Shown: positions 1,990 to 25,984 of the stretch, piece after piece
How positions within the stretch are numbered: the stretch's first letter is position 1
How the letters are laid out: each line of letters opens with the position of its first letter
Source: a bacterium
GTDB taxonomy: Bacteria > Lernaellota > Lernaellaia > JACKCT01
Assembly (NCBI GenBank): GCA_019912885.1
Contig: JAIOHV010000140.1
Coordinates: forward strand, 23,706-87,705
Direction of reading: 5' to 3'
Length of the DNA stretch: 64,000 bases
Position numbers and translations under genes: made by a program
The notes under the pieces: model-generated
Database searches by the model: none
Seen by the model: the letters and a program-made list of their open reading frames with translations, nothing else
What the model was told of the DNA's origin: nothing

Positions 1990-2286
1990 ATGACAATGGA
2001 ATCGAAATTCGTCTACGAGCTACTCGCCTTGATTGGCGGCGCGATGGCTGGCTACGGCGCGATGTTTGTCTTTTTGATCAAGTGGATGACCCGCAAGAAC
2101 GACGAACTCCTCAAGATCATGCTCGGCAACGACCGCGCGTGGAAGGCGCAGACCACCGAGTCGCTGGCCGACATCCGCGAGTGTGTCGATCACGGCGACT
2201 GCTGCGCGTATAAGGCCGACAAGGAAAACGTCCACGAGCGGCTGAACGAGATCCGCACGGCGGTCGTGGGACGGGAGGGCGCGTGA
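1990..2286 (+). CDS. Holin-like small membrane protein
   Basis: 98 aa with one clear hydrophobic helix (LLALIGGAMAGYGAMFVFLI) and a charged C-terminal tail. Its stop overlaps the start of the endolysin gene (2283-2286). Confidence 0.45.
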   Translation: MTMESKFVYELLALIGGAMAGYGAMFVFLIKWMTRKNDELLKIMLGNDRAWKAQTTESLADIRECVDHGDCCAYKADKENVHERLNEIRTAVVGREGA

Positions 2287-2816
2287 TGGCCGAAGCGAAC
2301 ATCATCCGCCTAGTCGAGAAACTGCCGTGGAATCCGAGCCGACCGCGCTGGCCGCAGAAGCGCAACCTGGAAAAGATCGACCGCGTGATCCTGCATCAGA
2401 GTCTCGGCCATGCGGACGTGTCCGGCAACCGCGATGTCTTCGGGATCAACAACTACCACATCAGCCCCGGCAACCACATCTCGGCCGCGGGCTGCCCGCA
2501 TATTTGCTATCACGCGTGCATTGACGACGATGGCTCCATCTACCTCTGCAACGATCTCACTGACGTTGTCTGGCACGCCGCCGCCCAGAACTCCCGCTCC
2601 ATCGGCGTCATGCTGGTCGGCGACTTCGCGGGGCCGGGACACGAAGGAGGTGAACCCACAGCGGCGCAGGAGCAGTCGTTCTTCGCCCTGGCCGAGCATC
2701 TGATGGCCACGCTGGGGCTTGTGCCCACGGCATTTTTCGGCCACTGCGACTTCGGCAAACCCGCGTGTCCGGGGACGACGGTCTACGGATGGGTCCAGCG
2801 GCTCCGGAATTGCTGA
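2283..2816 (+). CDS. N-acetylmuramoyl-L-alanine amidase endolysin (Amidase_2 / PGRP fold)
   Basis: Zn-amidase signature elements: VILHQS, NYH, VVWHAA, SIGVMLVGDF, GHCDFGKPACPG (T7-lysozyme-like H...H...C). Confidence 0.85.
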   Translation: MMAEANIIRLVEKLPWNPSRPRWPQKRNLEKIDRVILHQSLGHADVSGNRDVFGINNYHISPGNHISAAGCPHICYHACIDDDGSIYLCNDLTDVVWHAAAQNSRSIGVMLVGDFAGPGHEGGEPTAAQEQSFFALAEHLMATLGLVPTAFFGHCDFGKPACPGTTVYGWVQRLRNC

Positions 2817-2936
2817 AATAGCGCCGCTTTTCGCGCCGAAAAACTTCTCAAATACAAGCAGTTAAAGCCCACATTCGCCTTGACTTCCCCGCCCCCCGAA
2901 GCGATGTGTTTGACCACTTGAAAGGGGGCATTGTCG

Positions 2937-3890
2937 ATGGAACAATCTGGATCAGAGAATCCCAAGCACACGCTGCGCACCCTGCGCTTCGGCGTCGAGA
3001 TCGAACTCGTGATGATCTCCCGCGAGCGCGCGGCCAAGGCGGTCCAAGCGGTGGTCGGCGGCGCGGCCGCGTATCGCGGCTACGTCGATGGCCTCGATAC
3101 CTGGGTGGTCGATGACGCTCGTGGTCGCACATGGAAAATCGTATCCGACGCCTCGCTCACGAACGCGCCCGCGCACCTGCGCGTCGAGGTCGTCACGCCG
3201 ATCCTCGAATGGAATGATATCGCGGAACTCCAGGAGGTCGTGAGGGCGCTGAGGCAAACGGGCGGTCGCGTCAACGACCAGTGCGGAGTCCACGTCCACG
3301 TCGACGGTGCGCCCTTCGACGCCGCCGCGCTCGCCCGCCTGGTCAAGATTGTCAACAAACAGGAACGGCTGATCATCGACGCGCTCGCAGTCGACGAAGA
3401 TCGTCTGCGCCGGTACGCGAAGGCGAACAGCCAGGAGTTCGTCCAGAAGGTATCGACGCAGCGCGTCCGGTCGATGCGCACGCTAAATCGACTGTGGTAC
3501 GGGAAACACAACGGCCATCCGCAGCACTACGATCCGTCGAGATATAGAGGCCTAAATCTTCACCCGCTATGGTACGACCAATCGTTCGAACTCCGCTGGT
3601 TCAACGGATCGAACCACGCCGGGGTGATCCGCGCCTACATCGTGTTTTCGCTTGCCCTCGCGGCCAAGGCGCTCAATTCCAGGGCCGCCAGCGCCTCGCG
3701 CCGCGAATACGATCCGAACAACACTAAGTTTTGTTTCCGTGTTTTTCTGCTTCATCTCTCGCTCTCCGGCGACGAGTTCAAAAACGTCCGAAAGCACCTC
3801 ATGGCGCATCTCACCGGCAGTGCCGCATGGCGGCATGGGCGGCCGACGAAGAAGGGAAAGGGTGATGGGGCCGAGCAAGAAGCGAGATAA
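2937..3890 (+). CDS. Glutamine-synthetase-like amidoligase (Amidoligase_2-type)
   Basis: RFGVEIELV near the N-terminus, TWKIVSDASL, VEVVTPIL, CGVHVHVDG. GGGGG Shine-Dalgarno 7 nt before ATG 2937; the ORF track starts at TTG 2931. Confidence 0.75.
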   Translation: MEQSGSENPKHTLRTLRFGVEIELVMISRERAAKAVQAVVGGAAAYRGYVDGLDTWVVDDARGRTWKIVSDASLTNAPAHLRVEVVTPILEWNDIAELQEVVRALRQTGGRVNDQCGVHVHVDGAPFDAAALARLVKIVNKQERLIIDALAVDEDRLRRYAKANSQEFVQKVSTQRVRSMRTLNRLWYGKHNGHPQHYDPSRYRGLNLHPLWYDQSFELRWFNGSNHAGVIRAYIVFSLALAAKALNSRAASASRREYDPNNTKFCFRVFLLHLSLSGDEFKNVRKHLMAHLTGSAAWRHGRPTKKGKGDGAEQEAR

Positions 3891-4320
3891 AGCTGGCAGC
3901 CGCTCCACGATCCTTTTCGTCTACGGCACATTGAAGCACGGCCAGCGGAACCACGGCCTGATGCGCGAGGCACGATTCCTGGGCGAGGCCATCACCGCGC
4001 CCCACTACACGCTACTCGACCTGGGGCCGTTCCCCGGCCTGATCGCGGGCGGCAACACCGCCGTCCACGGCGAACTTTACGAGGTCGAGCCGAAACTCCT
4101 GGTGCGCCTCGACCGGCACGAGGGTGTGCCAAGGTTCTACATCCGCGAGGCCCTCCACCTGGACGGACGTGACAACGTCCAAAGCTATTTTCTGGTCGAC
4201 TCAGATCGAGTCCGAGACGGTATGCCTCTTATCGGCGGAATATGGATTCCGTCTCGCTCCACCTGGAATCCTGAAATCGGAAAAAACGGAATGACCCTCG
4301 CTGTCACATTCGTTTTCTAG
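3865..4320 (+). CDS. Gamma-glutamylcyclotransferase / AIG2-like (GGCT fold) protein
   Basis: ILFVYGTLKHGQRNH ... GELYEV ... LDRHEGVPRFYIRE. ATG 3865 lies inside the amidoligase 3' end (26-nt overlap). The upstream part of ORF 3652..4320 is out-of-frame overlap and is not counted. Confidence 0.8.
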   Translation: MGPSKKRDKAGSRSTILFVYGTLKHGQRNHGLMREARFLGEAITAPHYTLLDLGPFPGLIAGGNTAVHGELYEVEPKLLVRLDRHEGVPRFYIREALHLDGRDNVQSYFLVDSDRVRDGMPLIGGIWIPSRSTWNPEIGKNGMTLAVTFVF

Positions 4321-4401
4321 TATGATGCGCGGAAACGACCTGTAGGCGCTGAATACTTCCCAGGATTTTCACGCTGGCCATGCGCCACGACAGGGCTAGG
4401 C

Positions 4402-4434
4402 TTGCTCGTTTGCGAGCGGCTTTTCCTTTGTTTG
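4402..4434 (+). terminator. Weak hairpin + T-rich tract after the GGCT gene
   Basis: Stem gctcg/cgagc (4404-4408 / 4413-4417) with a tttg loop and flanking G-U pairs, followed by cttttcctttgtttg. Confidence 0.3.
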
Positions 4435-4465
4435 TCGATGGATTTCGTTTTGGGGACAGACGCTG

Positions 4466-7400
4466 ATGGCCCAGAAAACTCTTGACCCGATATCGATTCC
4501 TCGCGTGGGCATGATGGCCACGCTGCGGAACCGCCGGGCGCTCGTGGCTTCCGTGGAACCGTTTGATGCCGGTCCTGACGGTCGCCTTCACCTTGTTCGC
4601 GTCGAGTACACCGACCTTGACGGCGTACCGGAAGACGCCGTGCTTTGGGAACGCGAACAAGGCGCGACGCTACTGGAGCCGACAACCCTTCCGCAAGTTT
4701 CCGGCAGCGCGCCAATGATCCACGCTGAATACGACGCCTTGCTTCGGGCAACCCGCTGGAGCGCGATCACACCGTTCTTGAGTCCTGACGGCTCCGGAGA
4801 ACTGTCCGAGTTGCCGATATCCTCACCGTTTCACGGCGCGATCCAGGTTGATGACTTCCAATTGGTGCCGCTCCTGCAGGCGCTACAGATGCCACGAGTG
4901 TCTCTGCTGCTGGCCGACGACGTCGGCCTCGGCAAGACCATCGAAGCGGGCCTCGTCCTTACGGAACTCCTGATTCGGCGGCGCATCCGACGCGTCTTGA
5001 TCATCTGCCCGGCGTCGCTGCGAAACCAGTGGCGGCAGGAGATGGAGCAAAAATTCGCGCTGTCCTTCGACATCGTCGACCGGCCAGAAACCCACGCACT
5101 CCAGAAGCGCCTTGGTTTGCACGCCAATCCTTGGCGCGTCTTTCCACGCGTCGCCACGTCCTACCATTACCTGCGCCAACCCGACGTGCTGGAACAGTTT
5201 CTTTCCACTTGCCGTCCGACCGATCCGGACGCGCCGCTCGCTGCGCAGCTTCCCTGGGATCTGCTCGTCGTCGACGAGGCCCACAACCTGATGCCCTCGA
5301 ACTTCGGCGACGACAGCGACCTGACGAAGATGTTGCGTAGCATCACCCCATACTTCGAGCACAAACTCTTCCTGACCGCGACGCCGCACAACGGACACAC
5401 GCGGTCGTTTTCAGGTCTTCTGGAACTGCTCGACCCGGTTCGCTTCACCCAGACAAGCGATTTCAGCGATGACGAAAAGGCCCGTGTCGAGACGGTGGTC
5501 GTTCGACGCCTCAAGCGCGAGATCAACGAACTGGACGACCGCCTGAAACGGCCTCGTCGTTTTGCAGAACGCTACTTGGTTCCGGTCCCACTCTACTTCC
5601 ACCGGGAGGAAAAGCTCCTGGCCGAAGCAGTCGAGTCGTTCCGTAAAAAGGTCAAGACGCTGATCGCCGCCTCAAGCCGGACGGAACAATTGGCCGGATC
5701 GTTTGCGGTCGAGGTTCTGAACAAGCGATTGCTGTCCTGCCCCTATACCTTTGGCGAATCCTGGTGTCGATTCAAAAACGGACTCTCCGAAGAGGAAGCT
5801 GCCGATTCTGAAGAGGTCGCGGCCGCCAAGCGCGCCAGCGAAGCAGACATCGACGACGACCGGGAGCGTGAAGATCGAACGCGCCATGCGGTGCGAACTG
5901 TCGGCGCGTGGTTGAAGCCTCTGGTAACCACGCTGCAGGAACACATCAGTGCCATCGATACAACGCTACAGCATCTCGGTATCGCTTGGCGCGACGACTC
6001 GCCCACCGATCCCAAAAAGGACAGCCGCCTGGACCGAGTCATCGAACTGATCAACAAACACCTGCGGCGCGACCGGCAGTGGCTCGATGATGAGCGCCTG
6101 GTCATTTTTACGGAATACAAGACGACGCTCGACTACCTCGAACGACGCTTGAAGGCAGCCTTCGAGGACGACGGTGAACGCATCCGTATTCTGTATGGCG
6201 GCATGGATCAGGCTGACCGCGATTTGATCCGCGACGCTTTCAATGACCCCAACGACCCGATCCGAATTCTGATCGCTACGGACGCGGCCTCGGAAGGTCT
6301 GAACCTGCAAGAGACCGCCCGCCTGATGCTGCATTTCGACATCCCCTGGAACCCGTCGCGTCTTGAGCAACGCAACGGCCGCCTGGACCGACATGGTCAA
6401 GCGCGGGACGTGAGCGTCCATCACTTCGCCAGCGAAGACGACGCCGATCTCAAGTTCCTTGGGCACGTGGTGAAGAAAGTGGAAACCATCCGAGAGGACC
6501 TCGGATCGATGGGCGAGGTTTTTGATGCAGCGTTCGCCCGCCGATTCGTCGACCTGGAGGACTCGGATCGAGTCATTAGCGGCCTCGACCGCGATGTGGA
6601 GACGAACCGCAATCGCGCCGAGGTGCCCCGGAAAAAAAACATGTCGACCGGCGAGCAGGAAAAGAGCCGCCTCGAACAGATGTGCCGCGAGATCGATCTC
6701 ACTCCGGAGACGCTTCGCTCCACGCTTGAAATCGCACTTGGCCTCGGGATCGGAATGCGCTGTTTGGAAGGGCCGGACGAACGAGGACGGTTCAAGCTTG
6801 GTCATCGGCCGCCAAAGTGGGAATCACTGATTAACGATTCCGTTCGCTTGAAAGGCAAGAGCGGTGTTCCCGGCCCTATGCCCGGTCTCATTTTCGATCC
6901 TCTGCTATTCGTCCAAAGGAACAATGGGCGCCCGGTTTTCAGGCCTGCCAAGGACACCGTGCTCCTTCATCTGGGACATCCGATGTTCCGGCATGCGCTC
7001 GTCACCTACGCCCGAGCGCGTTTTCCGGGGGCTGGGGGCGATTTCGCCGCGAGCCGATGGTGTGTGCGGCATGGCGATGTTCCGGCAGGAACCGATGCCT
7101 TGGTCCTGCTGACCGTGGAAGAACTGGGCGTCAACGAATTGCGCGAGCCGTTTCACCATTGGGTTCGCACGATCCAGATTCCAGTCAAGGGCGGCGAACT
7201 TAAAAATCCTCTGCCCCATGTTGTTCCGGCGGCCTGTTCCAGCGGAGCCGCTCCTGCGGGTGATCGAGCCGTAAAGCGAGCAAAGGACCTTTGGGAGGAG
7301 ATCGATCCCGACCTCGCCACGATGTTGAAGTCCGAAACCGAACGCTTGACCACCCTCGTTCGGGCGCACATGGAGAAGCGATTCAAGGTCGCCGCTGTCG

Positions 7401-7741
7401 AGGAGAAGAAGACCTTCGATCATCGCCAGAAAGAGATCGAGCGGCTGATGAGTGAGAACAACATCAAGAAGCTCGAAAAAGAACGCGACAAGCTCCTTGC
7501 CGTGATGAAGCAGCAGGAATTATTCGCGCCACAGGTGCGCGACCAAGAGGAGCGCCTGCGTGACCTGGAAGAGGAATTGAAGAGGCGGCGCAGCCACTAC
7601 CAGGATTTGCTCGACCGTCTCAAGATCGAACGTAAGCGGGTCCTGGAGCAGATCCTGCCCCAGCGATACAGCCTGCGTGGGAAGGTCCAGGTTTTCCCCG
7701 TTGCCGTGGAGATTCTCTTACCGAGGGAGGTTCGGCCATGA
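4466..7741 (+). CDS. SNF2-family helicase (DISARM DrmD-like)
   Basis: LADDVGLGKTIEAG (motif I), LLVVDEAHNL (II), LFLTATPHNG (III), ILIATDAASEGLNLQ (V), WNPSRLEQRNGRLDRHGQ (VI). Coiled-coil-rich C-terminus. Stop overlaps the next start (ATGA 7738-7741). Confidence 0.85.
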   Translation: MAQKTLDPISIPRVGMMATLRNRRALVASVEPFDAGPDGRLHLVRVEYTDLDGVPEDAVLWEREQGATLLEPTTLPQVSGSAPMIHAEYDALLRATRWSAITPFLSPDGSGELSELPISSPFHGAIQVDDFQLVPLLQALQMPRVSLLLADDVGLGKTIEAGLVLTELLIRRRIRRVLIICPASLRNQWRQEMEQKFALSFDIVDRPETHALQKRLGLHANPWRVFPRVATSYHYLRQPDVLEQFLSTCRPTDPDAPLAAQLPWDLLVVDEAHNLMPSNFGDDSDLTKMLRSITPYFEHKLFLTATPHNGHTRSFSGLLELLDPVRFTQTSDFSDDEKARVETVVVRRLKREINELDDRLKRPRRFAERYLVPVPLYFHREEKLLAEAVESFRKKVKTLIAASSRTEQLAGSFAVEVLNKRLLSCPYTFGESWCRFKNGLSEEEAADSEEVAAAKRASEADIDDDREREDRTRHAVRTVGAWLKPLVTTLQEHISAIDTTLQHLGIAWRDDSPTDPKKDSRLDRVIELINKHLRRDRQWLDDERLVIFTEYKTTLDYLERRLKAAFEDDGERIRILYGGMDQADRDLIRDAFNDPNDPIRILIATDAASEGLNLQETARLMLHFDIPWNPSRLEQRNGRLDRHGQARDVSVHHFASEDDADLKFLGHVVKKVETIREDLGSMGEVFDAAFARRFVDLEDSDRVISGLDRDVETNRNRAEVPRKKNMSTGEQEKSRLEQMCREIDLTPETLRSTLEIALGLGIGMRCLEGPDERGRFKLGHRPPKWESLINDSVRLKGKSGVPGPMPGLIFDPLLFVQRNNGRPVFRPAKDTVLLHLGHPMFRHALVTYARARFPGAGGDFAASRWCVRHGDVPAGTDALVLLTVEELGVNELREPFHHWVRTIQIPVKGGELKNPLPHVVPAACSSGAAPAGDRAVKRAKDLWEEIDPDLATMLKSETERLTTLVRAHMEKRFKVAAVEEKKTFDHRQKEIERLMSENNIKKLEKERDKLLAVMKQQELFAPQVRDQEERLRDLEEELKRRRSHYQDLLDRLKIERKRVLEQILPQRYSLRGKVQVFPVAVEILLPREVRP

Positions 7742-10700
7742 CGACCGCGATCTCCCGCGAGCGAGCATGGTGGGTTTCGCTGAAGCATGGCGGCCTTCTC
7801 ATCGCACCGTCAAAGCTGGCTGAGTTCTTCCCCGAGGATATCGATCCGCTTCCGAAATACGTCATCGAGCGCCTGCGCCGGGATGTTACGAGACTTCAGA
7901 GCGGCGAGGATAAATACCTTCCGACGCTCTTCGACACGCTCGTTGAACACGTCCTCGGCTATCCGAAAAACCAGTGGACTAAAGGCAGCGTCGTCGATAC
8001 CAAGTGGTCGCGCCGAGCGATTACCGGTGAGATCGTCAAACCTCGCTACCTGTGGCAGGACGCTTCAGGAGAAATCCTGCCCGTATTCGTTGCCGACGCC
8101 GCGTTGGGTGCTGGGCACGATCACGAGACGGTGAGTCGCCTGGGTATCGGTCGCGGTCGCCGCTCGGTATCGCGTGTCATCGAGTGGCTTCGCCATACGG
8201 GCGAGAAGATCGCCCTGCTGACGAACGCTCGCCAATGGCGATTGATCCATGCGGGCGCGGACTACGACGCTTGGTGCGAGTGGGACATCGACTTGTGGTT
8301 TGAAGAGGGTGCGCCGGGTTCCCAGGTGACGGCGCTGCGTCAACTCCTCGGCGTGGACGCGCTTAAGAAGCGCTCGGCTGACGAACCATCACGCCTACTC
8401 GCGGCGATCCAGGCTTCCCGCAAAGGCCAAGCGGAACTGAGCAGCGCACTTGGCGAGCGGGTGCGCCAGGCGGTCGAACATCTCGTTCACGCATCGAGCG
8501 AAGCCCTCAACGTGTTTGAAGGCAATGCTCCGACCCCTGAAACGCGACGCGCCATTTACATTGCCGCCACGCGGCTCATCATGCGTTGCGTTGTCGTGCT
8601 TTTCGCCGAAGCCAGGGAATTGCTGCCTCGCAACAATCCTATCTACAACGACTCCTACGGATTACAGGGCCTGCGCGAACAACTGGATCGGCTTGCCGGT
8701 GGACGCGGCCCAGAACGGCTTCGACATTCCTGGGGCGCGTGGCCGAGGATCATCTCACTGTTTCGGCTGATCTTTTCCGGTTCCGGCCACGAGGCGCTGC
8801 CGATCCAGCGTTACGGCGGCGGTCTTTTTACACCGGGCGATCCGAATGCTGACGATTCGACATCAAGGGCCCTGGCCGCATTGGAGAACCAGAAGGACTG
8901 TCCCAGCGACGCCGACGCGCATCGGATTTTGGAACTGCTGTGCCACAGCAAGGTGAAGGTTCGCCAAGGGCGCGGCAGCACTTGGGTACCCGTTCCGGTG
9001 GACTTTTCCGATCTGTCCTCCGAATACATCGGCATACTCTATGAAGGCTTGCTCGACTTCGAGTTGCGTCGCGCCGAGACCGATGCGCCTATCGTGTTCT
9101 TGAACATCGGCGACCAACCGGCACTGCCCTTCTCGCGTTTGGAGGCAATGGATGACAGCGGACTTTCTTCGCTCCTGTCCAAGCTGAAGGTCTCCACGAA
9201 GAAGATGGCTTCCGAGGAAGAGTCCGAGGAAGGCGGTGACGAGGGTGAGGACGAGGGCGAAGAGGAGGAGATCGAAGCCGAGAGCGCAGACGACGACGAA
9301 CCTGTCGAGGAACTCGATGTCGACCAAGCGATCCGCGATGCGGTGTTTGGTTGGGCCGAGCGCGCCGTCAAGGCTGCGAAGATCGTCAAGGCGCCCAAGG
9401 GTAAAAAAGAAGGCCGCGCTAAGGCGGAATACGAGGAGCACGTTGGGAAGGCCGCAAGAGGGCTTGTTGGGCGAATCATTCCACCCGGCGACTGGTATCT
9501 GGTTCGTTGGGGCGGAACTCGCAAGGGCGCGGGCACGTTCTACACGCGGCCGCAACTGGCGGTTCCGACGACGCGCCGGACCCTGCAACCGCTGGCCTTT
9601 GATGTAGGCTCGGACGGTCAGGCCGTTCCCAAGAAACCCGAGGATATCCTGGCGCTCAAGGTCTGCGATCCGGCGATGGGCAGCGGTTCCTTCCTGGTCG
9701 CTGCCTTACGCTTCATCACCGACGCACTGCTGGTGAGCCTCCATCACCACGGGCGACTCGAAGAAACTGTGGGGCGAACAATCTGCCGTCTGGCCGACGG
9801 TGTACCGCTCGACCACCCTTCACAGGAATCGTTGCCCGTACCGAAAGACCATCCAGAATTCGAGGACCGTCTGCGCGCCCGACTCAAGCGCCACGTCGTC
9901 GAACGATGCATCTACGGCGTCGACCTCGACCCTCTGGCGGTCGAACTGGCGCGCATGGCGCTCTGGATCGAGACGATGGATCAGCGGCTGCCGTTCAGCT
10001 TCCTCGATCACAAGATCAAATGCGGCAACAGTCTGGTGGGATGCTGGTTCGACCGCTTCCAGGAATACCCGGCGATGGCCTGGGAGCGACAGGGTGACGA
10101 ATGGACCGATGCCATCAAGCAATTCAAAAACACGAAGGTCAAACCGGCCTTGGCCGCTTGGATCAAGGCGCGTCGGGAAGACGTTCTGCCCTTCATGAAA
10201 AAAGGCTTCACGCTCGACGATCTGCATCGAGACGCGGTGCGCGTGTTTGAGGAATTGCATGCGCTGCCGGTGCAAGAGACCGAGCGGCGCGAGACGATCT
10301 ATCGAGAGCATATCCTGGCGAACGAGGAGTTTTCACGTCTAAAGTCGGCGTTCGACACGTGGTCCGCCGTCTGGTTCTGGCCGGGGGACCAACTGAACCT
10401 CGCTCCGATGCCAAGGGATTTTGTTGCTCCTTCCAAATCCACAATGGACATGGTGCGAAGCCTGACTGCTCACCATCGGTTCTTCCATTGGGAGTTGGAG
10501 TTTCCGGATGTATTTTCGGGACCGAAATCCGGATTCCATGCGCTGATCGGCAACCCGCCGTGGGAAATCCAGAAGCCGAACTCGAAAGAGTTTTTCTCGA
10601 ACATCGACCCTTTGTACCGAGCCTACGGCAAGCAAGAAGCTCTCGCCAAGCAGCGTGAATTCTTTGCCAGCAATTCCGACCTCGCGCGGAATTGGCTGAT

Positions 10701-12747
10701 CTACAGTGCCCAACTAAAGGCACTTTCAAACTGGACGAAGCACTCCGCGTTCCCATTCGGCGACGTAAAGGAGGGCGGTGATAAACTCTCGTTCTCCAGG
10801 TCGACAACTGACAATGTCAGCCTGCACGATAGCTGGCGCAAGCAACGCCAGGGAAGGAAAGGCTATTCGGACCCGGAACACCCCTACCGGCACCAGGGAT
10901 CGGCAGACATCAATACGTACAAGATGTTCCTTGAAATCGCGCACGCTCTCGCGGCAAGCGGCGGGCAGTTCGGATTCCTCGTACCATCAGGCGTCTACAC
11001 CGACAAAGGCAGCACAAGCCTTCGGCAATTGTTCCTGACCAAGTGCGAGTGGCTGTGGCTGTTTGGTTTTGAAAACCGTGAAGGGATCTTCGACATCCAC
11101 AGGTCGTTCAAGTTCTGCCCGGTAATCGTGAAGAAGGGCGGCTCGACCAAGGCAATCCGCGCCACGTTCATGCATCGCTCTCTGGAGGACTGGGAGGACG
11201 CGGAGCGGCACGTGCTCGCCTATCCGCGTGAACGCGTTGAGCAGTTCAGCCCGAAATCCAAAGCGATTCTTGAAATCCGGACTGAGCGCGATTTGGAAAT
11301 TCTGGAGAAGCTCTACGCCAAGGGAGTGTTGCTCGGCGACGATAGTCCGGATGGGTGGGGAATCAAATACGCCACTGAGTTCCACATGACCAACGACTCA
11401 AAGCTCTTCCCGCCGACGCCCAAGTGGGAGGAGCAAGGGTATCGACCCGACGAATACGGTCACTGGCTCATGGGCAAGTGGAAGCCCTACGACGGTCCGA
11501 GATCGATCTTGAATAGGAAGAAAGGGTTGGTCCTCTCGTGTGATGGAACTCAGACCATTTATGTGGACGAGATCGAGGACGTCGCGTTACCGCTGTACCA
11601 GGGTGTAATGATCGGGCAGTTCGATTTTGCGGCCGCAAGATATCTAAGCGGTGCCGGAAATAGGGCACATTGGGAGCCCCTTAGCTGGGAGGAGAAACGC
11701 CTGGCCCCCCAGTTCCTCATGGCCGCTGAGACGATCTTCGAGAAGAACGGCGGCGGGTTACGTGGATGCAAGCTCGGCTTCCGAGATATCTCGAATGCGA
11801 CCAACGAACGCACATTTATCACTTCTGTCGTGCCGGATGTTCCATGCGGGAACACGCTTGGGATACTACGCACCGACCGCGAGCGACCACTCGGGCTCGC
11901 GGTGGCGCTCACGAGTCTAGCTTGTGACTGGGCGACCCGACTGCGCATGGGCGGCATGCACCTCAACCTCTTCGTGATTGAAGACGTACCTGTCTTGCGT
12001 CCCGGCTGGTCGGACCAACATCGCCGCCTGCCGGTTCTCGGCGCAAGTTTGGCCTTCGGCCATCTCATTTTCGCCCACGAGTGGTTGACCCTGTCGATGG
12101 CCGAACGATGCCACCCGTGGAAGGCGCTCTGGGCCGTCACGCTCCATGAACGCCTCCGATTTCGAAGCATCGTTGACGCAGTTGTTGCTGACCTTTATGG
12201 CCTCACCTCTTGGGACTTGGCTTGGATCATCCGCGATTGCGACAACCCGGCGGCAGTGATGCATTCGGACGACTTCACACGTGCTCTCGATCCCAAGGGC
12301 TTTTGGAGAGTCGACAAAGAGTGTGACCCGGAACTGCGACATCCCGTTTTAGCGTATGTCGCCTTCTGCGACCTGAAAGAAAAAGGGCTGGATGCATTCC
12401 TCTCGCAGAACGATGGCGAGGGTTGGATGATTCCAGAGAAGTTGCGGCTCGCAGACTATGGACTTGGCCACGACGACCGCGCCAAGGAATACCAACCCGT
12501 GGCGTCTCGGCTAGGTGACCGGTTTTTGCCCTGGCAGCTTGAGCAATCTGTCGAAGAATCGTGGGAGGAATGCGAGCGGCACGCCGAGCTAATCGAGAGG
12601 ATCGTGCCGCGACCAAAGCCCTCTCAAACGGCAGTGCCAACGGCAGGTTCGAGAAGTGACGCACCCAAGGACCTGTTTGGAAATCCGGAACCGACTGACC
12701 TATTTGGAAAAGTCGTTGAACCGACGCGGAAATCCCGGAGGAAATGA
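7738..12747 (+). CDS. Very large N6-adenine(/N4-cytosine)-class DNA methyltransferase (DISARM DrmMI-like / type IIG-like)
   Basis: 1669 aa. SAM-binding VCDPAMGSGSFLVAAL, catalytic LIGNPPWE, long N- and C-terminal extensions and an acidic insert at 9211-9318. Translationally coupled on both sides. Confidence 0.85.
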   Translation: MTTAISRERAWWVSLKHGGLLIAPSKLAEFFPEDIDPLPKYVIERLRRDVTRLQSGEDKYLPTLFDTLVEHVLGYPKNQWTKGSVVDTKWSRRAITGEIVKPRYLWQDASGEILPVFVADAALGAGHDHETVSRLGIGRGRRSVSRVIEWLRHTGEKIALLTNARQWRLIHAGADYDAWCEWDIDLWFEEGAPGSQVTALRQLLGVDALKKRSADEPSRLLAAIQASRKGQAELSSALGERVRQAVEHLVHASSEALNVFEGNAPTPETRRAIYIAATRLIMRCVVVLFAEARELLPRNNPIYNDSYGLQGLREQLDRLAGGRGPERLRHSWGAWPRIISLFRLIFSGSGHEALPIQRYGGGLFTPGDPNADDSTSRALAALENQKDCPSDADAHRILELLCHSKVKVRQGRGSTWVPVPVDFSDLSSEYIGILYEGLLDFELRRAETDAPIVFLNIGDQPALPFSRLEAMDDSGLSSLLSKLKVSTKKMASEEESEEGGDEGEDEGEEEEIEAESADDDEPVEELDVDQAIRDAVFGWAERAVKAAKIVKAPKGKKEGRAKAEYEEHVGKAARGLVGRIIPPGDWYLVRWGGTRKGAGTFYTRPQLAVPTTRRTLQPLAFDVGSDGQAVPKKPEDILALKVCDPAMGSGSFLVAALRFITDALLVSLHHHGRLEETVGRTICRLADGVPLDHPSQESLPVPKDHPEFEDRLRARLKRHVVERCIYGVDLDPLAVELARMALWIETMDQRLPFSFLDHKIKCGNSLVGCWFDRFQEYPAMAWERQGDEWTDAIKQFKNTKVKPALAAWIKARREDVLPFMKKGFTLDDLHRDAVRVFEELHALPVQETERRETIYREHILANEEFSRLKSAFDTWSAVWFWPGDQLNLAPMPRDFVAPSKSTMDMVRSLTAHHRFFHWELEFPDVFSGPKSGFHALIGNPPWEIQKPNSKEFFSNIDPLYRAYGKQEALAKQREFFASNSDLARNWLIYSAQLKALSNWTKHSAFPFGDVKEGGDKLSFSRSTTDNVSLHDSWRKQRQGRKGYSDPEHPYRHQGSADINTYKMFLEIAHALAASGGQFGFLVPSGVYTDKGSTSLRQLFLTKCEWLWLFGFENREGIFDIHRSFKFCPVIVKKGGSTKAIRATFMHRSLEDWEDAERHVLAYPRERVEQFSPKSKAILEIRTERDLEILEKLYAKGVLLGDDSPDGWGIKYATEFHMTNDSKLFPPTPKWEEQGYRPDEYGHWLMGKWKPYDGPRSILNRKKGLVLSCDGTQTIYVDEIEDVALPLYQGVMIGQFDFAAARYLSGAGNRAHWEPLSWEEKRLAPQFLMAAETIFEKNGGGLRGCKLGFRDISNATNERTFITSVVPDVPCGNTLGILRTDRERPLGLAVALTSLACDWATRLRMGGMHLNLFVIEDVPVLRPGWSDQHRRLPVLGASLAFGHLIFAHEWLTLSMAERCHPWKALWAVTLHERLRFRSIVDAVVADLYGLTSWDLAWIIRDCDNPAAVMHSDDFTRALDPKGFWRVDKECDPELRHPVLAYVAFCDLKEKGLDAFLSQNDGEGWMIPEKLRLADYGLGHDDRAKEYQPVASRLGDRFLPWQLEQSVEESWEECERHAELIERIVPRPKPSQTAVPTAGSRSDAPKDLFGNPEPTDLFGKVVEPTRKSRRK

Positions 12748-15700
12748 GCGTGCTGAATCCGATTACATACACGGAAAAAGTGGTCAGCGATTTTCTGAAA
12801 TATCAATTCACGACCTACCAGCTTGCCGACCGCGATCTGAATGCCCAAATGCGGCGCCTTCTGAGCTTGGAAGAAACCCGCGCGACGCCACTGATGAAAG
12901 GTCCATACATCAGCCTGAGCCGGTCGTTTCGCAAAGGCGCAAAGGTCGCGGCCTTGATCGCAGAAGGGCTGCTGCATCCTCACATGGCCAGTCTTGTTCC
13001 ATTCCAGAACGTCTATGGGCACCAGGAAACGGCTATCCGAGAGATCGCCAAACGACAGTCAACATTGATCTCGACGGGAACCGGGTCTGGGAAAACCGAG
13101 TGCTTTTTGTACCCCATTATCAGTCGGTGCCTGAAGCTACGGGATGAAAACGCGGCCGAGGGAATTCTTGCGGTCATTGTCTATCCGATGAACGCACTGG
13201 CTGAAGACCAGTTGGGGCGTCTGCGAGACCTGCTGACAGGCACTGGCATCTCATTTGGAATGTACGTTGGCAAGACGCCCGAACACAAAGCGGATGTGGC
13301 GGGGGCCAGACTTCCGGCAGGTTCGTCACGCGCCGATTATCAGGCGAAACTTAAGCAGCTTCGGGAGCAAAAGGACTCGCGGGCTGTTCATCCGTCCGAG
13401 GAGAGCACATCGCGTGAGGAAATGCGCATGCCGGGCAAGCAGCCTCGCATTCTGCTGACGAACGTGAAGCAGCTTGAATTGCTCCTCACGCGGCATCAGG
13501 ACGTGGAGCTATTCGACAACGCTCGCCTCGAATTCTTGGTGTTCGACGAGGCGCACACATTCGCTGGAGCGGCAGGCGCGGAAACCGCTTGCTTGATCCG
13601 CCGCCTCCGCGCTTTCTGCGGCAAGGGACCGAAAGACACGGTGTGCGTCGCCACTTCAGCAACCATCGCCGATCCTGTTCGAGGACCGGATGCCGGACGC
13701 GCATTTGCTTCGCGGTTTTTCGGCGTTGAACCCGACAACGTCTCGCTGATCGGCGAGGAGTACGAGGAAGATACCTGGGCTAAAACCCGCACGCCAAGCG
13801 CGCCATTACCCGGCGATCCGGTTGTTCAGTTGCAGACAGTCTTGGACGCGATCTTCGAACTGGAAAAGACCCCGCCGTCCAAGGACGCCGTGAAGATGCT
13901 GCGTGGAGTTTTCCAGGCGATGACCGGTGCCGCACTCGATCCAACGAAATGGCACCAGAGCCTTTACGACAGGCTCGCCGCGAACGAGATCGTGTTCCAG
14001 ATCGCCGAAGCCCTCAAGGAACCTCGTGCGTTGTTGAAACTCGTCGAGGATCTGACAGCGCGACTCGGGCGTCCCGTTCCGGTCGAGGAGATTCTCACCT
14101 GGTTGGCGCTCGGTGCCGCGTCGCGCAGCGAGGATGAACGGCCGCTATTGCGGCCCGTGGTTCACTGTTTTGTCCGTGGCGTCAGTGGGGCGGTTGTGAC
14201 GTTCCCGCCCGATGAACAGCTGCCGCGCCTCTGGTTGTCCGCTGAAGACGCCGCCGAAAAGGAAGGGAGCCTGTTCCGCCTTCAAGCGACGACCTGCACC
14301 ACTTGCGGCCAACACTACTTCGTCCATTTCGTCAAGGATTTCGATCTGAGCGGGAAGACCCCTGGAGGTGGTGAGGCGAAGGAAGATCGATTCTACTGGC
14401 CGCCTCTCGATCAAGCCCTCAACGGCAGTCGAGTGGTCTTGCTGGATCGATTGGCCCTTGGTGAAGATGACGACGAGGACAACGATATCCCACGTAAAAG
14501 CACACCGCTTTTCTTCTGCCGATATTGCGGCACGCTTCACCCAAAGAAAATTGATCGGTGCGACGGCTGCGGCCGCGAAGGCGATTTGGTCGGCCTATTC
14601 GCTGTCTGGCAGGACAAGGACAATCCAGGATATCTCTCCAGGTGTGTCGCCTGCGGCTCACTGGGGCGACGGTATCTGGGGACCTACCGTGAACCGGCCC
14701 GCCCGATCCGTGCGTTGACCGTATCCGATGTCCACGTCTTGGCCCAGAGCATGATCCAGCACGCCGTGCGCAAGCGCCTTCTGGTATTTGCCGACAACCG
14801 ACAGGACGCCGCGTTCCAGGCCGGGTGGATGCAGGATCACGCCCGTCGGTTCCGTCTGCGTTCGCTGATGTACCAACAAATTGAGAAGGGACCGATTTCC
14901 ATCGGGGATCTGACAGCGCATCTTGATCGGCTCCTTGATCTGGACGACGACCTCTCGGCGGCGCTGATTCCCGAAGTCTGGCGCGTGGCGCGGAAGGAAG
15001 CCACGGGCCTTGAACACGCCCGCGAGCGAAAACGGTTTCTGCGTATCCAGATCTTGCGAGAAATCACCACAGGAGCGCGCCAACGCATCGGTCTTGAGCC
15101 GTGGGGCCGCATCCGCGTGGAATACGTGGGGTTGGACGCTAACCTTGACTTCTTTCAAAGGTGGGCACCGGAAACTGGATGCACACCAGAGGAGCTTCTG
15201 GCGGGTGTCGCTGCGCTTCTCGACGTCGCGCGGCGCAATCGCGCACTTCTCGACCGCGAGGACCAGGTCTTCAGTAAGATTTGGTTTGAAGGCGACCGCG
15301 AAGTGCAATACGGCTATCTGCCGATTCTGAAAGGCGGTCCCAAGGGACTGAAGCTCCGATACGAAGCGAATGACGAACGTAGCCGAATCATCCAGTGGTT
15401 GGGTCAGCGAGCGGGTACGGCGGCACGTCAGGCCGCCAAGAACTGGGGCGTCCCCGACGATAAGATCAAGGAATTCTTTGAAGAACTCTGGCGCTTGCTC
15501 ACCGACAAGCTTCGCCTGTTGGCGAGCGTGACGCTCGTCGGCCGCCGAAACAATGCGCTGCCCGGATGCGCGGACGTCAAGCAAATAGATGCTGACCGGT
15601 TACTGATCCACGCGAACAAGGGCGTCTATCGGTGCGATGTCTGTCGTAGGCCAAACGTCCGAAAGACACCGCATTCGGCCTGCATGGTGTTTCGATGCAG

Positions 15701-17576: not shown

Positions 17577-18160
17577 AGTTCGTCCGGGAATGCCCGGCGG
17601 AATGCGCGCGGGCGTGTGTTGACTGCTTGCTGCAGTTCCGCAACGCTTTCTACCACCGCTATTTGAATCGCCAACTCGCGGTCGAGCGGCTGTCTGATTG
17701 GGGCGCAAGCCTTGCTTATTCTCATGATCTGCCGCCGCGTCTGCCTGATGAACCATCGACGGAGATGCCCGTCAACCAGGCCGAAAAAGCGCTAAAGGCG
17801 ATGTTGGAACGCGCGGGTTTCCACGGCTTTAAGGCTCAACATCCCATCGATCTCGGACGACCGCTTGGGACGACGACGCCGGATTTCTTCATCGAAGATC
17901 CGACCGGGGCAAGAGAAGGCATCTGCATTTACCTCGACGGCATGAGCAAGCACATCCACGGTAATCCGAGGACCCTGAAAAAGGATCGGGAAATTCGAGA
18001 TGAACTGCGCGGTCGGGCCTATGAGGTGATCGAAATACCTTATGGGCATCTAACGGACCTAGAAGCGATGCGCCGTCACTTCTATCGTCTCGGAAGAATT
18101 CTCGCTGGCCGCGAGATGGCGGATAGAATCCGCGACAACGAAAATTGGTTCAAAACATGA
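17429..18160 (+). CDS. C-terminal continuation of the same helicase gene (rest of DUF1998 + Vsr/DUF559-like nuclease fold) in another frame
   Basis: EMEIGDLQLL..LLYDPMPGGSGLLEQM..CPAECARACVDCLL continues the DUF1998 domain, then TTPDFFIED...ICIYLDGMSKHIHG...DREIRDELRGRAYEVIEI. Only the part of ORF 17105..18160 after ~17423 makes sense. Confidence 0.7.
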   Translation: MEIGDLQLLAIGRPGDEKLDILLYDPMPGGSGLLEQMLGRWNEVIDAALKFVRECPAECARACVDCLLQFRNAFYHRYLNRQLAVERLSDWGASLAYSHDLPPRLPDEPSTEMPVNQAEKALKAMLERAGFHGFKAQHPIDLGRPLGTTTPDFFIEDPTGAREGICIYLDGMSKHIHGNPRTLKKDREIRDELRGRAYEVIEIPYGHLTDLEAMRRHFYRLGRILAGREMADRIRDNENWFKT

Positions 18161-18191
18161 AAATTTACCCGTGGGTACTGGAGGATTTCTG

Positions 18192-21801: not shown

Positions 21802-21984
21802 GGAAAATCACGCCAACCAGAAGTGCTGAGAAATCGTCACGCGCAATTGCTACACAGAGTGACGGATCAGTTTCGTAAAAAGAGTTTTCTTCCAGAAACG
21901 AAATCGATTGGTTCCGCCTTTTTCGACCGTCAAGAATCGGGCTACATCATTTTCTCTCTTCTATCCGTTTGTCTTTGTCCATTG

Positions 21985-22479
21985 CTCGGATGCCCCTGCG
22001 GCTATTACGGAGACTCGATGCACGAGTGCCGCTGCGCGCCGGGCGCCGTCGCACGCTACATCCAGCGTATTTCGGGGCCGCTGCTCGATCGCATCGATCT
22101 GCACGTCGAGGTTCCGTCCGTGCGTTACAAGGAGATCGCCAACCCCGCCGCGGCGGAATCTTCGGAGGCGATTCGCGCGCGCGTGGTCGCGGCGCGCAAT
22201 ATCCAGATTGAACGATTCGCCGGCACGCGGGCGCGCTGCAACGCGGCGATGAGCGTCACGCAGATCCGCCGCTACTGCCGCATCGACGCGGACGGTCACC
22301 GCATCATGGAGGCGGTGATGGAGCGCCTCGGACTGTCGGCCCGCGCGCACGACCGTATCCTCAAGGTCTCGCGCACGATCGCCGACCTCGACGGCGTGCC
22401 GGACATCCGCGCAACGCACATCGCCGAGGCCGTCCAATACCGCGGCCTCGACCGAACATTCACCAACGCGGCCGCGTAA
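21985..22479 (+). pseudogene. comM: 3' remnant of comM/yifB (Mg-chelatase-like AAA+ competence protein), N-terminal two-thirds missing
   Basis: CPCGYYGD..C.C, YIQRISGPLLDRIDLHVEV, ARAHDRILKVSRTIADLDG, HIAEAVQYR are the conserved C-terminal ComM/YifB blocks. The first ~54 codons of ORF 21823..22479 are unrelated AT-rich sequence. Confidence 0.8.
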
Positions 22480-25721: not shown

Positions 25722-25728
25722 AAGCCGG

Positions 25729-25862
25729 CCGGTGCGAACATCGCCGCGGACCGCATCAACGATCTTGTCCGCGGGCGCGTGCTGTTCAAAAGCGTCCTTC
25801 TCGCGTATGGATTTTTGCCTTTCGACGTTCATTCGCTCGCGCTTGAGCGCGTCGATCCGGGA
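25729..25862 (+). repeat. 134-nt direct repeat, copy 2 (orphan fragment of an SRPBCC-like gene)
   Basis: See 23716-23849. Begins 8 nt after the stop of the 24174..25721 gene. Confidence 0.9.
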
Positions 25863-25865
25863 ACG

Positions 25866-25984
25866 GCGCCCGCGCCCGGGTCGAACGGCGCGGTCTCCTC
25901 GCCTTCGCATGAACACGCGGGCCCGCCGAACGCCAGTATGGCGATCGCGCCAACGATGCACCAACCGCGCCGCGTTCGTCGCAT
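25866..25984 (-). pseudogene. 5' fragment (signal peptide + first ~40 codons) of a paralog of the 26069..27115 lipoprotein gene
   Basis: The minus strand from ATG 25984 reads MRRTRRGWCIVGAIAILAFGGPACSCEGEETAPF... versus MRGRLRAFFVSIAVAAMAIGAPSCSCEGEETAPF... in the intact gene. It runs into the antisense of repeat copy 2 and stops at 25829-25831. Confidence 0.6.

Follow-up and report, generated by a model that had tools for sequence, protein, structure and literature searches.

A two-gene amidoligase and gamma-glutamylcyclotransferase unit in a temperate prophage, a reduced member of a long-known phage cassette

In the literature, phages of the phiEco32, LUZ24, PaP3 and RIO-1 type are reported to combine a gamma-glutamylcyclotransferase (GGCT) and a GAT with an amidoligase, a second ligase and an ATP-grasp enzyme. 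Later papers describe this set of genes, also termed the 'peptidoglycan modification cassette', as a putative peptidoglycan-modification or superinfection-exclusion module, and trace it to Iyer 2009 and Hardies 2013 (PMC5498523, PMC11945000, PMC3890496). The 64,000-nucleotide stretch of DNA analysed here (the window) encodes an Amidoligase_2 protein and a GGCT-fold protein, as do the podophage cassettes (phiEco32, LUZ24, PaP3, tf, RIO-1 and PSA-HP1 types), and for both the function is a prediction. The window holds two of the five podophage enzymes and is without the GATase, the ATP-grasp enzyme and the second COOH-NH2 ligase: neither the ORFs nor the Pfam matches between 2816 and 4466 include a class-II glutamine amidotransferase, and the unit consists of two ORFs only, with no ATP-grasp enzyme or second COOH-NH2 ligase among them. 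Whereas the podophage cassette is located in the early or DNA-metabolism region of virulent phages, the window pair follows the lysis genes of a temperate prophage. A tblastn search with the window ligase (E<=1e-5) retrieved no LUZ24- or phiEco32-type ligases, hence the window ligase represents a different subfamily. A sister clade of this ligase (L031, L036 and L041; 52-54% identity) nevertheless retains the cassette order of amidoligase, GATase_6 and GGACT, with a DUF5049-containing ORF following the amidoligase, while in Arthrobacter phages the ligase is partnered by a GATase alone.

A second counterpart of the window arrangement is provided by two-gene modules of PHROG 2443 and PHROG 2520 reported in Ca. 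Heliusvirales, in Faecalibacterium phage Taranis and in C. clostridioforme LM41 prophages (PMC11318856). These gut Firmicutes phage modules have the same order and strand as the window pair, and their ligases are 34-39% identical to the window ligase over ~90% of its length. In contrast, the partner is mostly of the YGSN type (AIG2_2/GGCT-like) rather than the YGTL type (GGACT/YtfP-like) found in the window. It is often fused to DUF4314, or followed by a DUF4314 gene, which is not a feature of the window, and the ligase is often preceded by a very divergent second ligase paralogue. The gut module also lies between DNA methylases and terminase, as opposed to the position of the window pair after lysis genes. 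The pairing was thus already recognised, and the evidence supports well the view that the window carries a reduced two-gene member of the long-known phage amidoligase/GAT/GGCT cassette. An earlier note on this DNA had described the pair as an uncharacterised module without experimentally defined function. This holds in that no experiment defining a function for the amidoligase/GGCT pairing was found in the literature searched; it does not hold for the pairing itself, known from PHROG 2443/2520, from published prophages and from the Iyer 2009/Hardies 2013 cassette.

Pairs of enzymes that install and remove a gamma-glutamyl group are established in metabolism, including BtrJ/BtrG (butirosin), EgtA/EgtC (ergothioneine), PuuA/PuuD (putrescine) and the gamma-glutamyl cycle (GCL and GGCT). 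Of these enzymes, EgtA and PuuA belong to the GS superfamily of ligases, and the fold of BtrG is that of GGCT. The logic of BtrJ/BtrG, EgtA/EgtC and PuuA/PuuD is that proposed here, in which an ATP-dependent ligase forms the gamma-glutamyl amide and the glutamyl group is later stripped by an enzyme of the GGCT-fold or GATase type. However, the metabolic pairs act on known substrates and flank other tailoring steps within longer pathways, while no tailoring enzyme is located beside the window pair, and the two share no sequence kinship beyond the superfamily. A similar concept is seen for the PafA/Dop pupylation system, in which a ligase joins the glutamate gamma-carboxylate to lysine with a reversing enzyme alongside. 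A structure search with the ligase model does recover PafA, at a TM-score of just 0.32-0.33; the reversing enzyme of that system is a PafA paralogue, as opposed to the GGCT fold in the window, where no Pup-like gene was seen. The Klebsiella 'amidoligase-like' protein CfmP has no bearing on the pair, as it is an ATP-grasp enzyme.

The pair lies within what is, with good support, a temperate myovirus-like prophage of a deltaproteobacterial or myxococcal-type genome, probably inserted at a comM-like gene. The phage setting is evident from genes 5' of the pair (tail-fibre-like, holin-like and endolysin) and from baseplate genes in relatives. A small holin-like ORF (1990-2286, by Pfam/PHROG context) precedes the muramoyl-L-alanine amidase endolysin of the Amidase_2 family (2283..2816, + strand; PF01510 E=1.9e-16, PHROG endolysin/amidase families), which is the last gene that every relative in this prophage lineage shares. 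As a well-supported conclusion, a variable region starts right after the endolysin, with the pair as its first unit. Beyond the pair, PADLOC identifies variable defence cargo on the + strand (4466..21801), comprising a DrmD-like SNF2 protein (4466-7741), a type IIG/DrmMI-like methylase (7738-12747), a DruE/DrmA-like helicase (12744-17576), SIR2 (18171-19598) and HerA (19462-21801). The lysis genes 5' and the DISARM-like and SIR2-HerA genes 3' that the earlier note had reported were thus recovered using Pfam, PHROG and PADLOC. Its placement of the pair at a prophage end does not agree with our data, as the likely right junction of the integrated element is ~17.5 kb further on, near 21985. Here a 3' fragment of a comM/Mg-chelatase-like gene (21985..22479, + strand) covers Mg_chelatase positions 158-206 of 207 and Mg_chelatase_C (Pfam), and the comM-like homology in the translation starts near ...CPLLGCPCGYYG. 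No ORF of 150 aa or more is found in 21802-21980, and the window contains no tRNA genes that could mark an att site; the truncated comM-like gene is taken as the likely junction.

The ligase gene (2937..3890, + strand) encodes a 317 aa Amidoligase_2 protein. It starts at an ATG (2937) located 7 nt 3' of a Shine-Dalgarno-like run, GAAAGGGGG, with an alternative in-frame TTG at 2931. The match to PF12224 (E=5.7e-57; score 193.8 bits, cut-off 22) covers profile positions 2-244 of 245, and the protein matches PHROG 2443, 'amidoligase enzyme', at E=2e-73. Both the ORF and the motifs previously read as an amidoligase signature were confirmed at this position. Eight residues (E21, E23, E84, H119, H121, R202, E218 and R220) are without variation across 66 homologues. 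E21 and E23 fall within the RFGVEIE motif, E84 within VEVVTP, and H119 and H121 within CGVHVHV, and this pattern of conservation leads us to assign the eight residues to putative GS-type metal and ATP sites.

An AF2 model of the ligase was obtained with high confidence (pLDDT 93.6, pTM 0.90). Its best Foldseek matches in the PDB are YbdK/GCS2 (1r8g), glutamine synthetases of types I-III and PafA, with probabilities of 0.9-1.0 at TM-scores of just 0.32-0.42, indicating a distant likeness; models of viral amidoligases reach TM-scores of up to 0.65. The ligase is hence predicted to be an ATP-dependent carboxylate-amine ligase with a glutamine-synthetase-like fold. PDB searches using the single ligase sequence or a 66-sequence profile gave nothing meaningful, and NCBIfam contains no model for either protein of the pair. 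Ten long relatives of the ligase (412-956 aa) contain extra regions in which no Pfam domains and no GGCT fusions were detected, thus offering no fusion clue to a role. The literature searched yielded no measured activity for any PF12224 member. Amidoligase_2 is a large, mainly viral family (~4,300 clusters at 50% identity reach E<=1e-3) that has no sequence-detectable solved structure, and its functional prediction has been repeated since 2009.

The second gene (3865..4320, + strand) encodes a GGACT/AIG2-type gamma-glutamylcyclotransferase of 151 aa. The AIG2/GGCT-fold protein proposed here by the earlier note is borne out by the ORF, by PF06094 (E=1.7e-22; score 80.6 bits, cut-off 22.8) and by PHROG 2520, 'gamma-glutamyl cyclotransferase'. 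Solved GGACT-fold proteins that align to it are E. coli YtfP (1xhs, E=7.5e-11), human GGACT (3jub, E=5.5e-8) and the mouse protein (1vkb). It carries the YGTL motif at its N-terminus (Y20-G21-T22-L23), and E86, within LDRHEG, is placed in the alignment opposite the FLDDFE glutamate of the mouse and human-type GGACT chains; the catalytic glutamate of human GGACT is Glu82. Y20, G21, D83 and E86 are invariant among close relatives and at least 90% conserved in 78 partner proteins. The ligase keeps all family-invariant residues, and the cyclotransferase both YGTL and the glutamate aligned with the catalytic residue of GGACT. An AF2 model of the GGCT built from a shallow alignment was discarded owing to its low confidence (pLDDT 52.4). 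The C-terminal ~20 residues are a read-through extension missing in 31 relatives.

The ligase stop codon (TAA, 3888-3890) lies beyond the GGCT start (ATG, 3865), giving an overlap of 26 nt. The same overlap is present in relatives L003, L004, L022 and L023, and gene calls give 14 nt in L021. This retention in close relatives provides good support for a translationally coupled operon, as had been proposed from the overlap alone. Both genes are under purifying selection of a strength comparable to that on the endolysin, with dN/dS values against relatives of 0.12-0.20 for the ligase and 0.23-0.44 for the GGCT.

Comparison of the loci revealed a conserved element 5' of the pair (2841..2908, + strand), within which lie TTGACT and the imperfectly inverted repeat CACAT(T)CGC ... 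GCGATGTG. It is almost fully invariant in 8 related loci, compared with ~78-85% identity for the coding DNA there, and occurs as a single copy in the window against a chance expectation of 0 matches. The core of the element is restricted to loci with the pair and missing from pair-less relatives. Furthermore, it keeps its place beside the ligase even where an extra gene has been inserted after the endolysin. It is probably a promoter or operator of the pair. A riboswitch was considered and dropped since the RNA fold of the block is insignificant (z=-0.29); an Rfam scan of 2500-4700 gave just a sub-threshold M23 match at 3815-3861 (26.7 against 41.2 bits), taken as chance. A consensus scan places a terminator-like hairpin followed by a T-run (4400..4419, + strand) between the GGCT stop and the DrmD-like start, which suggests that the pair may form a transcription unit apart from the defence operon starting at 4466. 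Together with the upstream element, it lends good support to the pair being an autonomous unit.

Whether the pair could be an accessory part of the neighbouring DISARM-like or SIR2-HerA system was considered by comparing related loci. It is present in 10 of 15 loci of the same prophage lineage, cleanly missing in 4, and reduced to a GGCT 3' remnant alone in 1, so a common but dispensable status is well supported. The pair-less relatives were found by scanning metagenomes with the endolysin as query (the same scan of viral contigs gave no match), and their homology with the window ends at ~2795. An initial reading of the pair as conserved phage backbone was withdrawn because these relatives share the endolysin yet miss the pair. 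Six kinds of sequence follow the pair in relatives, among them BREX-like genes (L003), a type I RM system (L005), a ResIII helicase (L006 and L019), a MAD7 protein with an N6 methylase (L022 and L023) and host IleRS (L021); the DISARM-like arrangement of the window recurs in L004. As tblastx of the flanks in L003, L005 and L021-L023 against the window found nothing in common, there is no common host flank.

The case for an accessory role in DISARM or SIR2-HerA is one of proximity, with just 146 bp on the same strand from the GGCT stop to the DrmD-like start; one relative, L004, is arranged alike. It is countered by the hairpin in between, by the other genes that occupy this position in relatives, and by the absence of defence genes near the pair at most loci. 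No conserved co-occurrence with DISARM-like or SIR2-HerA core genes was seen among the relatives. This explanation is close to refuted, and it is well supported that the pair is not a component of either system. Because the sequences 3' of the pair vary between relatives, the link to defence reflects a shared accessory region as opposed to a shared function, and the pair is hence no defence candidate on context alone. The guilt by association invoked by the earlier note is accordingly weak: relatives carry other genes, or none, 3' of the pair. In being gained and lost as a whole, and in having a regulatory element of its own, the pair acts as a discrete accessory module.

A stand-alone anti-phage defence of the prophage, acting through an abortive-infection drain of ATP and glutamate or through glutamylation of an invading phage protein, is a separate matter. 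The accessory region of the pair otherwise holds defence systems in every relative examined, the pair has its own putative promoter, and lysogens often express the accessory genes found at such places in a prophage. Against this, PADLOC-DB v2 contains 0 families matching the ligase or the GGCT, while the neighbours matched strongly in the same search; the absence of a named defence system of this composition had been anticipated. No sensor or regulatory domain is present that would restrain a toxic cycle, and the family is widespread in virulent phages and giant viruses and nearly absent from plasmids, the reverse of the usual distribution of defence. We regard this reading as very improbable.

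As regards wider distribution, 70 phage records and no fewer than 534 IMG/VR stretches contain relatives, compared with 3 of 72,556 plasmid records; virulent, crAss-like, jumbo and giant viruses are among the carriers. Of 82 evaluable loci, 78 have a GGCT-fold ORF adjoining the ligase, 71 of them with Pfam confirmation, and after dereplication at 80% identity the figure is 29 of 33 evaluable loci. A few phage lineages dominate this census, and its counts therefore do not represent independent events. Ligase and partner show correlated pairwise identities (r=0.685), a value reached by 0 of 2000 Mantel permutations. The earlier note had been prepared to abandon its proposal if the two families were not syntenic in other genomes; the strong synteny seen here means that this argument against it fails. 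Amidoligase and GGCT are a widespread phage-specific pair. Their frequency in phages, virulent ones included, and near-absence from plasmids fits a phage-serving function better than host defence.

The neighbours of the pair in most other phages are DNA methylases, SAM synthetase, ParB-N and terminase rather than defence genes. Among same-strand neighbours in 41 dereplicated phage loci we counted 10 N6_N4 DNA methylases, 5 C5 methylases, 11 ParB_N and 3-4 SAM synthetases. This recurrence would be in keeping with modification of nucleic acids or nucleotides for anti-restriction, in which a base, a nucleotide or an amine or carboxylate bound to DNA would be decorated by the ligase, and the resulting adduct completed or edited by the GGCT. 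A study of thymidine hypermodification found amidoligase and amidotransferase Pfam matches within hypermodification gene clusters, and the window pair shares its accessory region with restriction-type defence cargo. However, no 5-hmdU kinase, aGPT-Pplase, dUMP hydroxymethylase or similar gene is found near the pair in the window or close relatives, which would leave ordinary DNA lacking an obvious carboxylate or alkylamine handle. Furthermore, the methylase neighbourhood may reflect an accessory-gene site in one large gut-phage lineage, the loci not being independent. Anti-restriction is thus improbable.

The position of the pair directly 3' of the holin-like ORF and the muramoyl-L-alanine amidase endolysin could instead point to the envelope. 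According to this explanation, a peptidoglycan precursor in the cytoplasm (UDP-MurNAc-peptide or lipid II) would receive an amino acid or amine from the ligase at one of its carboxylates, on D-iso-Glu or meso-DAP; alternatively, the ligase would create an unusual gamma-glutamyl linkage. Gamma-glutamyl peptides would be trimmed or recycled by the GGCT, and the altered wall would stop adsorption or injection by other phages, leading to superinfection exclusion. Neither protein has a signal peptide or a clear membrane segment, and action would be limited to cytoplasmic precursors. Papers on related cassettes repeat this reading with reference to Iyer 2009 and Hardies 2013, and what they repeat is a prediction made in 2009. 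The adjacency to lysis genes is peculiar to the window lineage, the neighbours elsewhere being DNA methylases, SAM synthetase, ParB-N and terminase, and the 'three unusual linkages' argument needs the ATP-grasp enzyme, second ligase and GATase that the window lacks. A GGCT requires a free glutamyl alpha-amino group, and in stem peptides L-Ala blocks that group. On balance we consider envelope modification unlikely.

The reading we prefer, and to which we assign a probability somewhat short of even, is an autonomous phage accessory operon that serves the phage through ATP-driven gamma-glutamylation of an amine followed by 5-oxoproline release. In a first step, the GS-fold ligase would use ATP to activate a carboxylate as the acyl-phosphate and join it to a primary amine. 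The bond formed would most likely be a gamma-glutamyl amide, linking the glutamate gamma-carboxyl to the amine, given that the alternative ligase partners (GGCT-fold or stand-alone class-II GATase/Ntn-type) both act on gamma-glutamyl amides. The GGACT-type partner would then cyclise the gamma-glutamyl group to 5-oxoproline and free the amine. The acyl-phosphate mechanism is established for GS, GCS2 and PafA, and GGACT acts on gamma-glutamylamines; by analogy with these enzymes and with BtrJ/BtrG-type precedents, we infer the chemistry of all three steps. As a net result, an amine in the cytoplasm (for example that of a lysine side chain, a polyamine or a small metabolite) would carry a gamma-glutamyl mark for a limited time. 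The role would more likely lie in taking over the host, in counter-defence or in competing with other phages than in host defence. One argument against this reading comes from cassettes in which a GATase and a GGCT occur side by side, as this speaks against a simple exchange of one partner for the other.

Two further points weigh against this chemistry. The carboxylate used by the ligase need not be glutamate. On its face, a ligase and a cyclotransferase working on the same bond constitute a futile cycle, converting Glu and ATP to 5-oxoproline, ADP and Pi, which needs further explanation.

The same reactions could alternatively serve an auxiliary metabolic module acting on small molecules only, for instance by turning glutamate into 5-oxoproline with an amine as catalyst, by gamma-glutamylating polyamines and releasing them again, or by rerouting nitrogen and amino acids during infection or lysogeny. 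The canonical activities agree with this, as GS-like GCS2 and PuuA make gamma-glutamyl compounds and GGACT/GGCT release 5-oxoproline, and no recognisable targeting domain is present in the pair. Several papers annotate these genes as AMGs, one of them tying a carrier phage to nitrogen use, but such claims are annotations. The net reaction would also drain ATP with no evident benefit, and the near-exclusive phage distribution, with no cellular orthologues in NCBIfam, is unusual for borrowed metabolism. A purely metabolic role therefore appears quite unlikely.

Returning to the phage-serving operon, the minimal two-gene version with its intact-looking catalytic residues is a simple system for biochemistry, and a substrate, if found, would be relevant for hundreds of phages, abundant lineages of the gut among them. 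A bolder form of the proposal, which we hold to be unlikely, is that the minimal pair represents a new kind of phage conflict effector, writing and erasing a gamma-glutamyl mark on a macromolecular or signalling amine. If so, the mark could be placed on an immune signal that bears an amine, or on a lysine in a host protein of immunity or receptor biogenesis. This would result in counter-defence or exclusion of rival phages, with the cyclotransferase confining the mark in time or to the right target.

Two overlapping reading frames on the + strand, at 2937-3890 and 3865-4320, are present as the earlier note had described, and profile searches bear out the family proposed for each. The first encodes a 317-aa protein that matches essentially the full Pfam Amidoligase_2 profile (193.8 bits, where the cut-off is 22; E=5.7e-57) and PHROG 2443 'amidoligase enzyme' (E=2e-73), and is termed here the ligase. 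The second encodes a 151-aa GGACT-type gamma-glutamylcyclotransferase (GGCT), matched by PF06094 GGACT (E=1.7e-22) and by PHROG 2520 'gamma-glutamyl cyclotransferase'. The ligase stop codon (3888-3890) lies downstream of the GGCT ATG (3865), giving the expected 26-nt overlap. The same overlap recurs in the gene calls of four close relatives (L003, L004, L022 and L023), while in a fifth, L021, it measures 14 nt. Measured against five relatives, dN/dS of the ligase is 0.12-0.20 and that of GGCT 0.23-0.44; the endolysin gives 0.12-0.18. Purifying selection thus acts on both genes of the pair, which are real and maintained.

A PDB search by sequence with the ligase, profile included, detected no solved structure. 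The AF2 model, based on an alignment of 66 homologues, is confident (pLDDT 93.6, pTM 0.90), and the closest solved structures to it are YbdK/GCS2 (1r8g, 1tt4), glutamine synthetases and the Pup ligase PafA. These matches combine high probability with TM values of just 0.32-0.42, which places the modelled ligase within the GS-like carboxylate-amine ligase fold, though far from its solved members. Residues E21, E23, E84, H119, H121, R202, E218 and R220 are invariant among the 66 homologues and fit the superfamily's pattern of metal, ATP and acyl-phosphate sites, onto which we infer that they map. A sub-threshold match to the Rfam M23 sRNA inside the 3' end of the ligase gene (3815-3861; 26.7 bits against a gathering threshold of 41.2, E=0.02) is probably due to chance.

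GGCT aligns with the solved GGACT-fold proteins YtfP (1xhs, E=7.5e-11), mouse GGACT (1vkb) and human GGACT (3jub). It retains the YGTL motif, and E86 is aligned to the catalytic Glu of GGACT. The C-terminus (window 4261-4320) is ~20 residues longer than in 31 relatives, which terminate soon after the conserved Trp127; this extension looks like read-through beyond a lost stop codon. An N-terminal hydrophobic segment was looked for in both proteins and found in neither, so both are probably cytoplasmic. The pair consists of two coupled, conserved enzymes that look active: the first shows the fold and motifs of a predicted carboxylate-amine ligase, the second those of a predicted gamma-glutamylamine cyclotransferase.

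In addition to the window, we assembled 103 loci drawn from genomes, metagenomes and IMG/VR; 82 loci were evaluable, each with a full-length ligase. A GGCT-fold ORF adjoins the ligase in 78 of the 82 (downstream in 72, upstream in 6). Pfam GGACT confirmed 71 of these 78 partners, the six upstream cases being the least certain. After dereplication at 80% ligase identity, a downstream partner is found in 29/33 evaluable loci. Furthermore, the identities of ligase and partner co-vary (r=0.685), a value reached by none of 2000 Mantel permutations. Together, these figures show that the two families are syntenic elsewhere, the opposite of the non-synteny that the earlier note had listed as refuting its proposal.

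The partners are of two types, YGTL (GGACT/YtfP-like, as in the window) and YGSN (GGCT/AIG2_2-like), the latter forming the majority in gut phages. At some Myxococcales loci both occur in tandem: in five MAGs (L007, L008, L009, L011 and L013) the ligase is followed by two GGCT-fold genes, one of YFAYGSNL type and one of VYGTL type. In the L008 example (8462-9403 and 9022-9789), the neighbourhood contains transposase-like ORFs with no obvious phage genes. Many Firmicutes phage loci from the gut (e.g. L001, 5119-5883 and 7439-7834) share two further features. One is a very divergent second ligase-like ORF directly upstream of the ligase, whose scores with the ligase HMM are 32-68 bits and which lacks a Pfam match. 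The other is a DUF4314 domain, fused to GGCT or following it, in 27/78 partners. In a sister clade at 52-54% identity the genes run amidoligase, DUF5049-containing ORF, GATase_6 (a class-II glutamine amidotransferase) and GGACT, and Arthrobacter phages carry the amidoligase and GATase only.

Upstream of the pair, the window contains a tail-fibre-like gene, a small holin-like ORF and an Amidase_2 endolysin (2283-2816), and relatives carry baseplate V, W and J genes farther upstream; these point to a myovirus-like prophage, whose host is a deltaproteobacterial or Myxococcales-type MAG. The tail-fibre-like ORF (7-1572) is without a Pfam or PHROG match and contains internal repeats of a ~37-aa unit (EVEAARGS..SLDARLD.S.N.DGTY.R.G.LD), which show in the translated sequence and, with blastn, as self-matches at an offset.

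A second search was seeded with the endolysin rather than the ligase. In four of the loci recovered (L106, L107, L108 and L110) the endolysin is 78-83% identical to that of the window and both genes of the pair are absent; homology to the window runs out where the endolysin gene ends, and different cargo of lower GC3 comes next. L109, with the same endolysin, lacks the ligase and retains a ~105-nt remnant (2852-2956) corresponding to window 4080-4184, the 3' part of GGCT, which looks like a scar left by deletion of the pair. Overall, the pair is present in 10 of the 15 evaluable loci of this prophage lineage. It is common yet dispensable, and comes and goes as a block.

Downstream of the pair, the window encodes DrmD-like, type IIG/DrmMI-like, DruE/DrmA-like helicase, SIR2 and HerA proteins. 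A 351-aa ORF (17105-18160) lies between the helicase and SIR2, partly overlapping the helicase ORF, and has no NCBIfam match. HerA is followed, after a stretch with no ORF of ≥150 aa, by a 3' fragment of a comM / Mg-chelatase-like gene that begins near 21985 (region 21802-22479). The integrated element probably has its right attachment junction at this fragment, in which case the ~17.5 kb of defence genes is prophage cargo within the element. Past it, long + strand ORFs at 24174-39922 (515, 693, 469, 532 and 671 aa) have no Pfam match at E≤1e-3.

The earlier note had taken this defence-gene context as a guide to function, which adds little, since the genes after the pair differ between relatives: BREX-like genes in L003, a type I RM system with RhuM in L005, a ResIII helicase in L006 and L019, an MAD7 protein with an N6 methylase in L022 and L023, and host IleRS, without any defence genes, in L021. 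That the pair belongs to the adjoining DISARM-like or SIR2-HerA systems is thus nearly excluded. When window 4466-21801 is compared with L003, L005, L006, L019, L021-L023 and L106-L108, the region after the endolysin or pair is a hotspot whose content differs in almost every relative, including also a large type IIG-like ORF accompanied by an HTH gene (identified by eye from the sequence), or nothing. A second, small site of variation lies between the endolysin and the element upstream of the ligase, where an extra gene is inserted in L005 (5571-6095), L006 (3464-4048), L021 (8329-8883) and L022 (8077-8886). Two of these inserted genes encode HExxH-like motifs (HHEWGHH, HEAGH); Pfam matches none of them.

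Ligase relatives number ~4,283 among 50%-identity clusters at E≤1e-3, ~1,259 at 1e-10 and ~411 at 1e-30, and at least 534 IMG/VR stretches match. Matches occur in 70 of 50,697 phage records versus only 3 of 72,556 plasmid records, and structural relatives are present in crAss-like, jumbo and giant viruses. The distribution is that of a phage-serving gene rather than of a host defence system, a stand-alone defence role being one of the rival readings. PADLOC has no model for ligase or GGCT, and defence-type helicases are rare beside the pair in 41 dereplicated phage loci. The neighbours in these loci are mostly DNA methylases, ParB-N, SAM synthetase and terminase, sometimes with a GATase. The methylase and SAM-synthetase neighbourhood supports a further rival, DNA or nucleotide modification by the pair, and a thymidine hypermodification study places amidoligase and amidotransferase domains within hypermodification clusters.

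The pairing is not new. PHROGs includes families for both proteins, and published prophages have them annotated as neighbours. [quoted passage not shown] These papers label the cassette a putative peptidoglycan-modification or superinfection-exclusion module, with Iyer 2009 and Hardies 2013 cited; other papers class amidoligase/GGCT genes as AMGs. The literature searched contained no experiments on any PF12224 protein. Hence, of the uncharacterised conflict module suggested in the earlier note, a real, conserved and uncharacterised phage module stands, albeit one already recognised, and the window's pair offers a minimal, tractable way into an old open question.

By analogy with GS, GCS2 and PafA, the ligase would form an acyl-phosphate and then an amide. 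The bond made would be a gamma-glutamyl amide, because both alternative partners (GGCT fold and class-II GATase/Ntn) process such bonds, and a GGACT-type partner would release the glutamyl group as 5-oxoproline. 'Install then remove' precedents are BtrJ/BtrG, EgtA/EgtC and PuuA/PuuD. With no tailoring enzyme between ligase and GGCT, two outcomes are possible: either a target amine carries a transient gamma-glutamyl mark, or Glu is turned, on balance, into 5-oxoproline at the expense of ATP. Rival roles are a purely metabolic one and the modification of cell-wall precursors, the latter being the view of the literature. With modest confidence, we favour a transient mark on a cytoplasmic amine, serving host takeover, counter-defence or phage competition.

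Immediately upstream of the ligase lies a conserved non-coding block of ~65 nt (2841-2908) that is almost wholly invariant in 8 relatives, where coding DNA is ~78-85% identical. Within it are TTGACT and an imperfect inverted repeat (CACATTCGC ... GCGATGTG). The block occurs once in the window and, among the loci, only where the pair is present, and it stays with the ligase despite the extra gene inserted after the endolysin (L005, L006, L021-L023, L111). It has no significant RNA fold and no Rfam match, and is probably the promoter or operator of the pair. A C-run in the block could pair with a GGGGG Shine-Dalgarno-like run. At the other end of the pair, a terminator-like hairpin (4400-4419) is located between GGCT and the DrmD-like gene.
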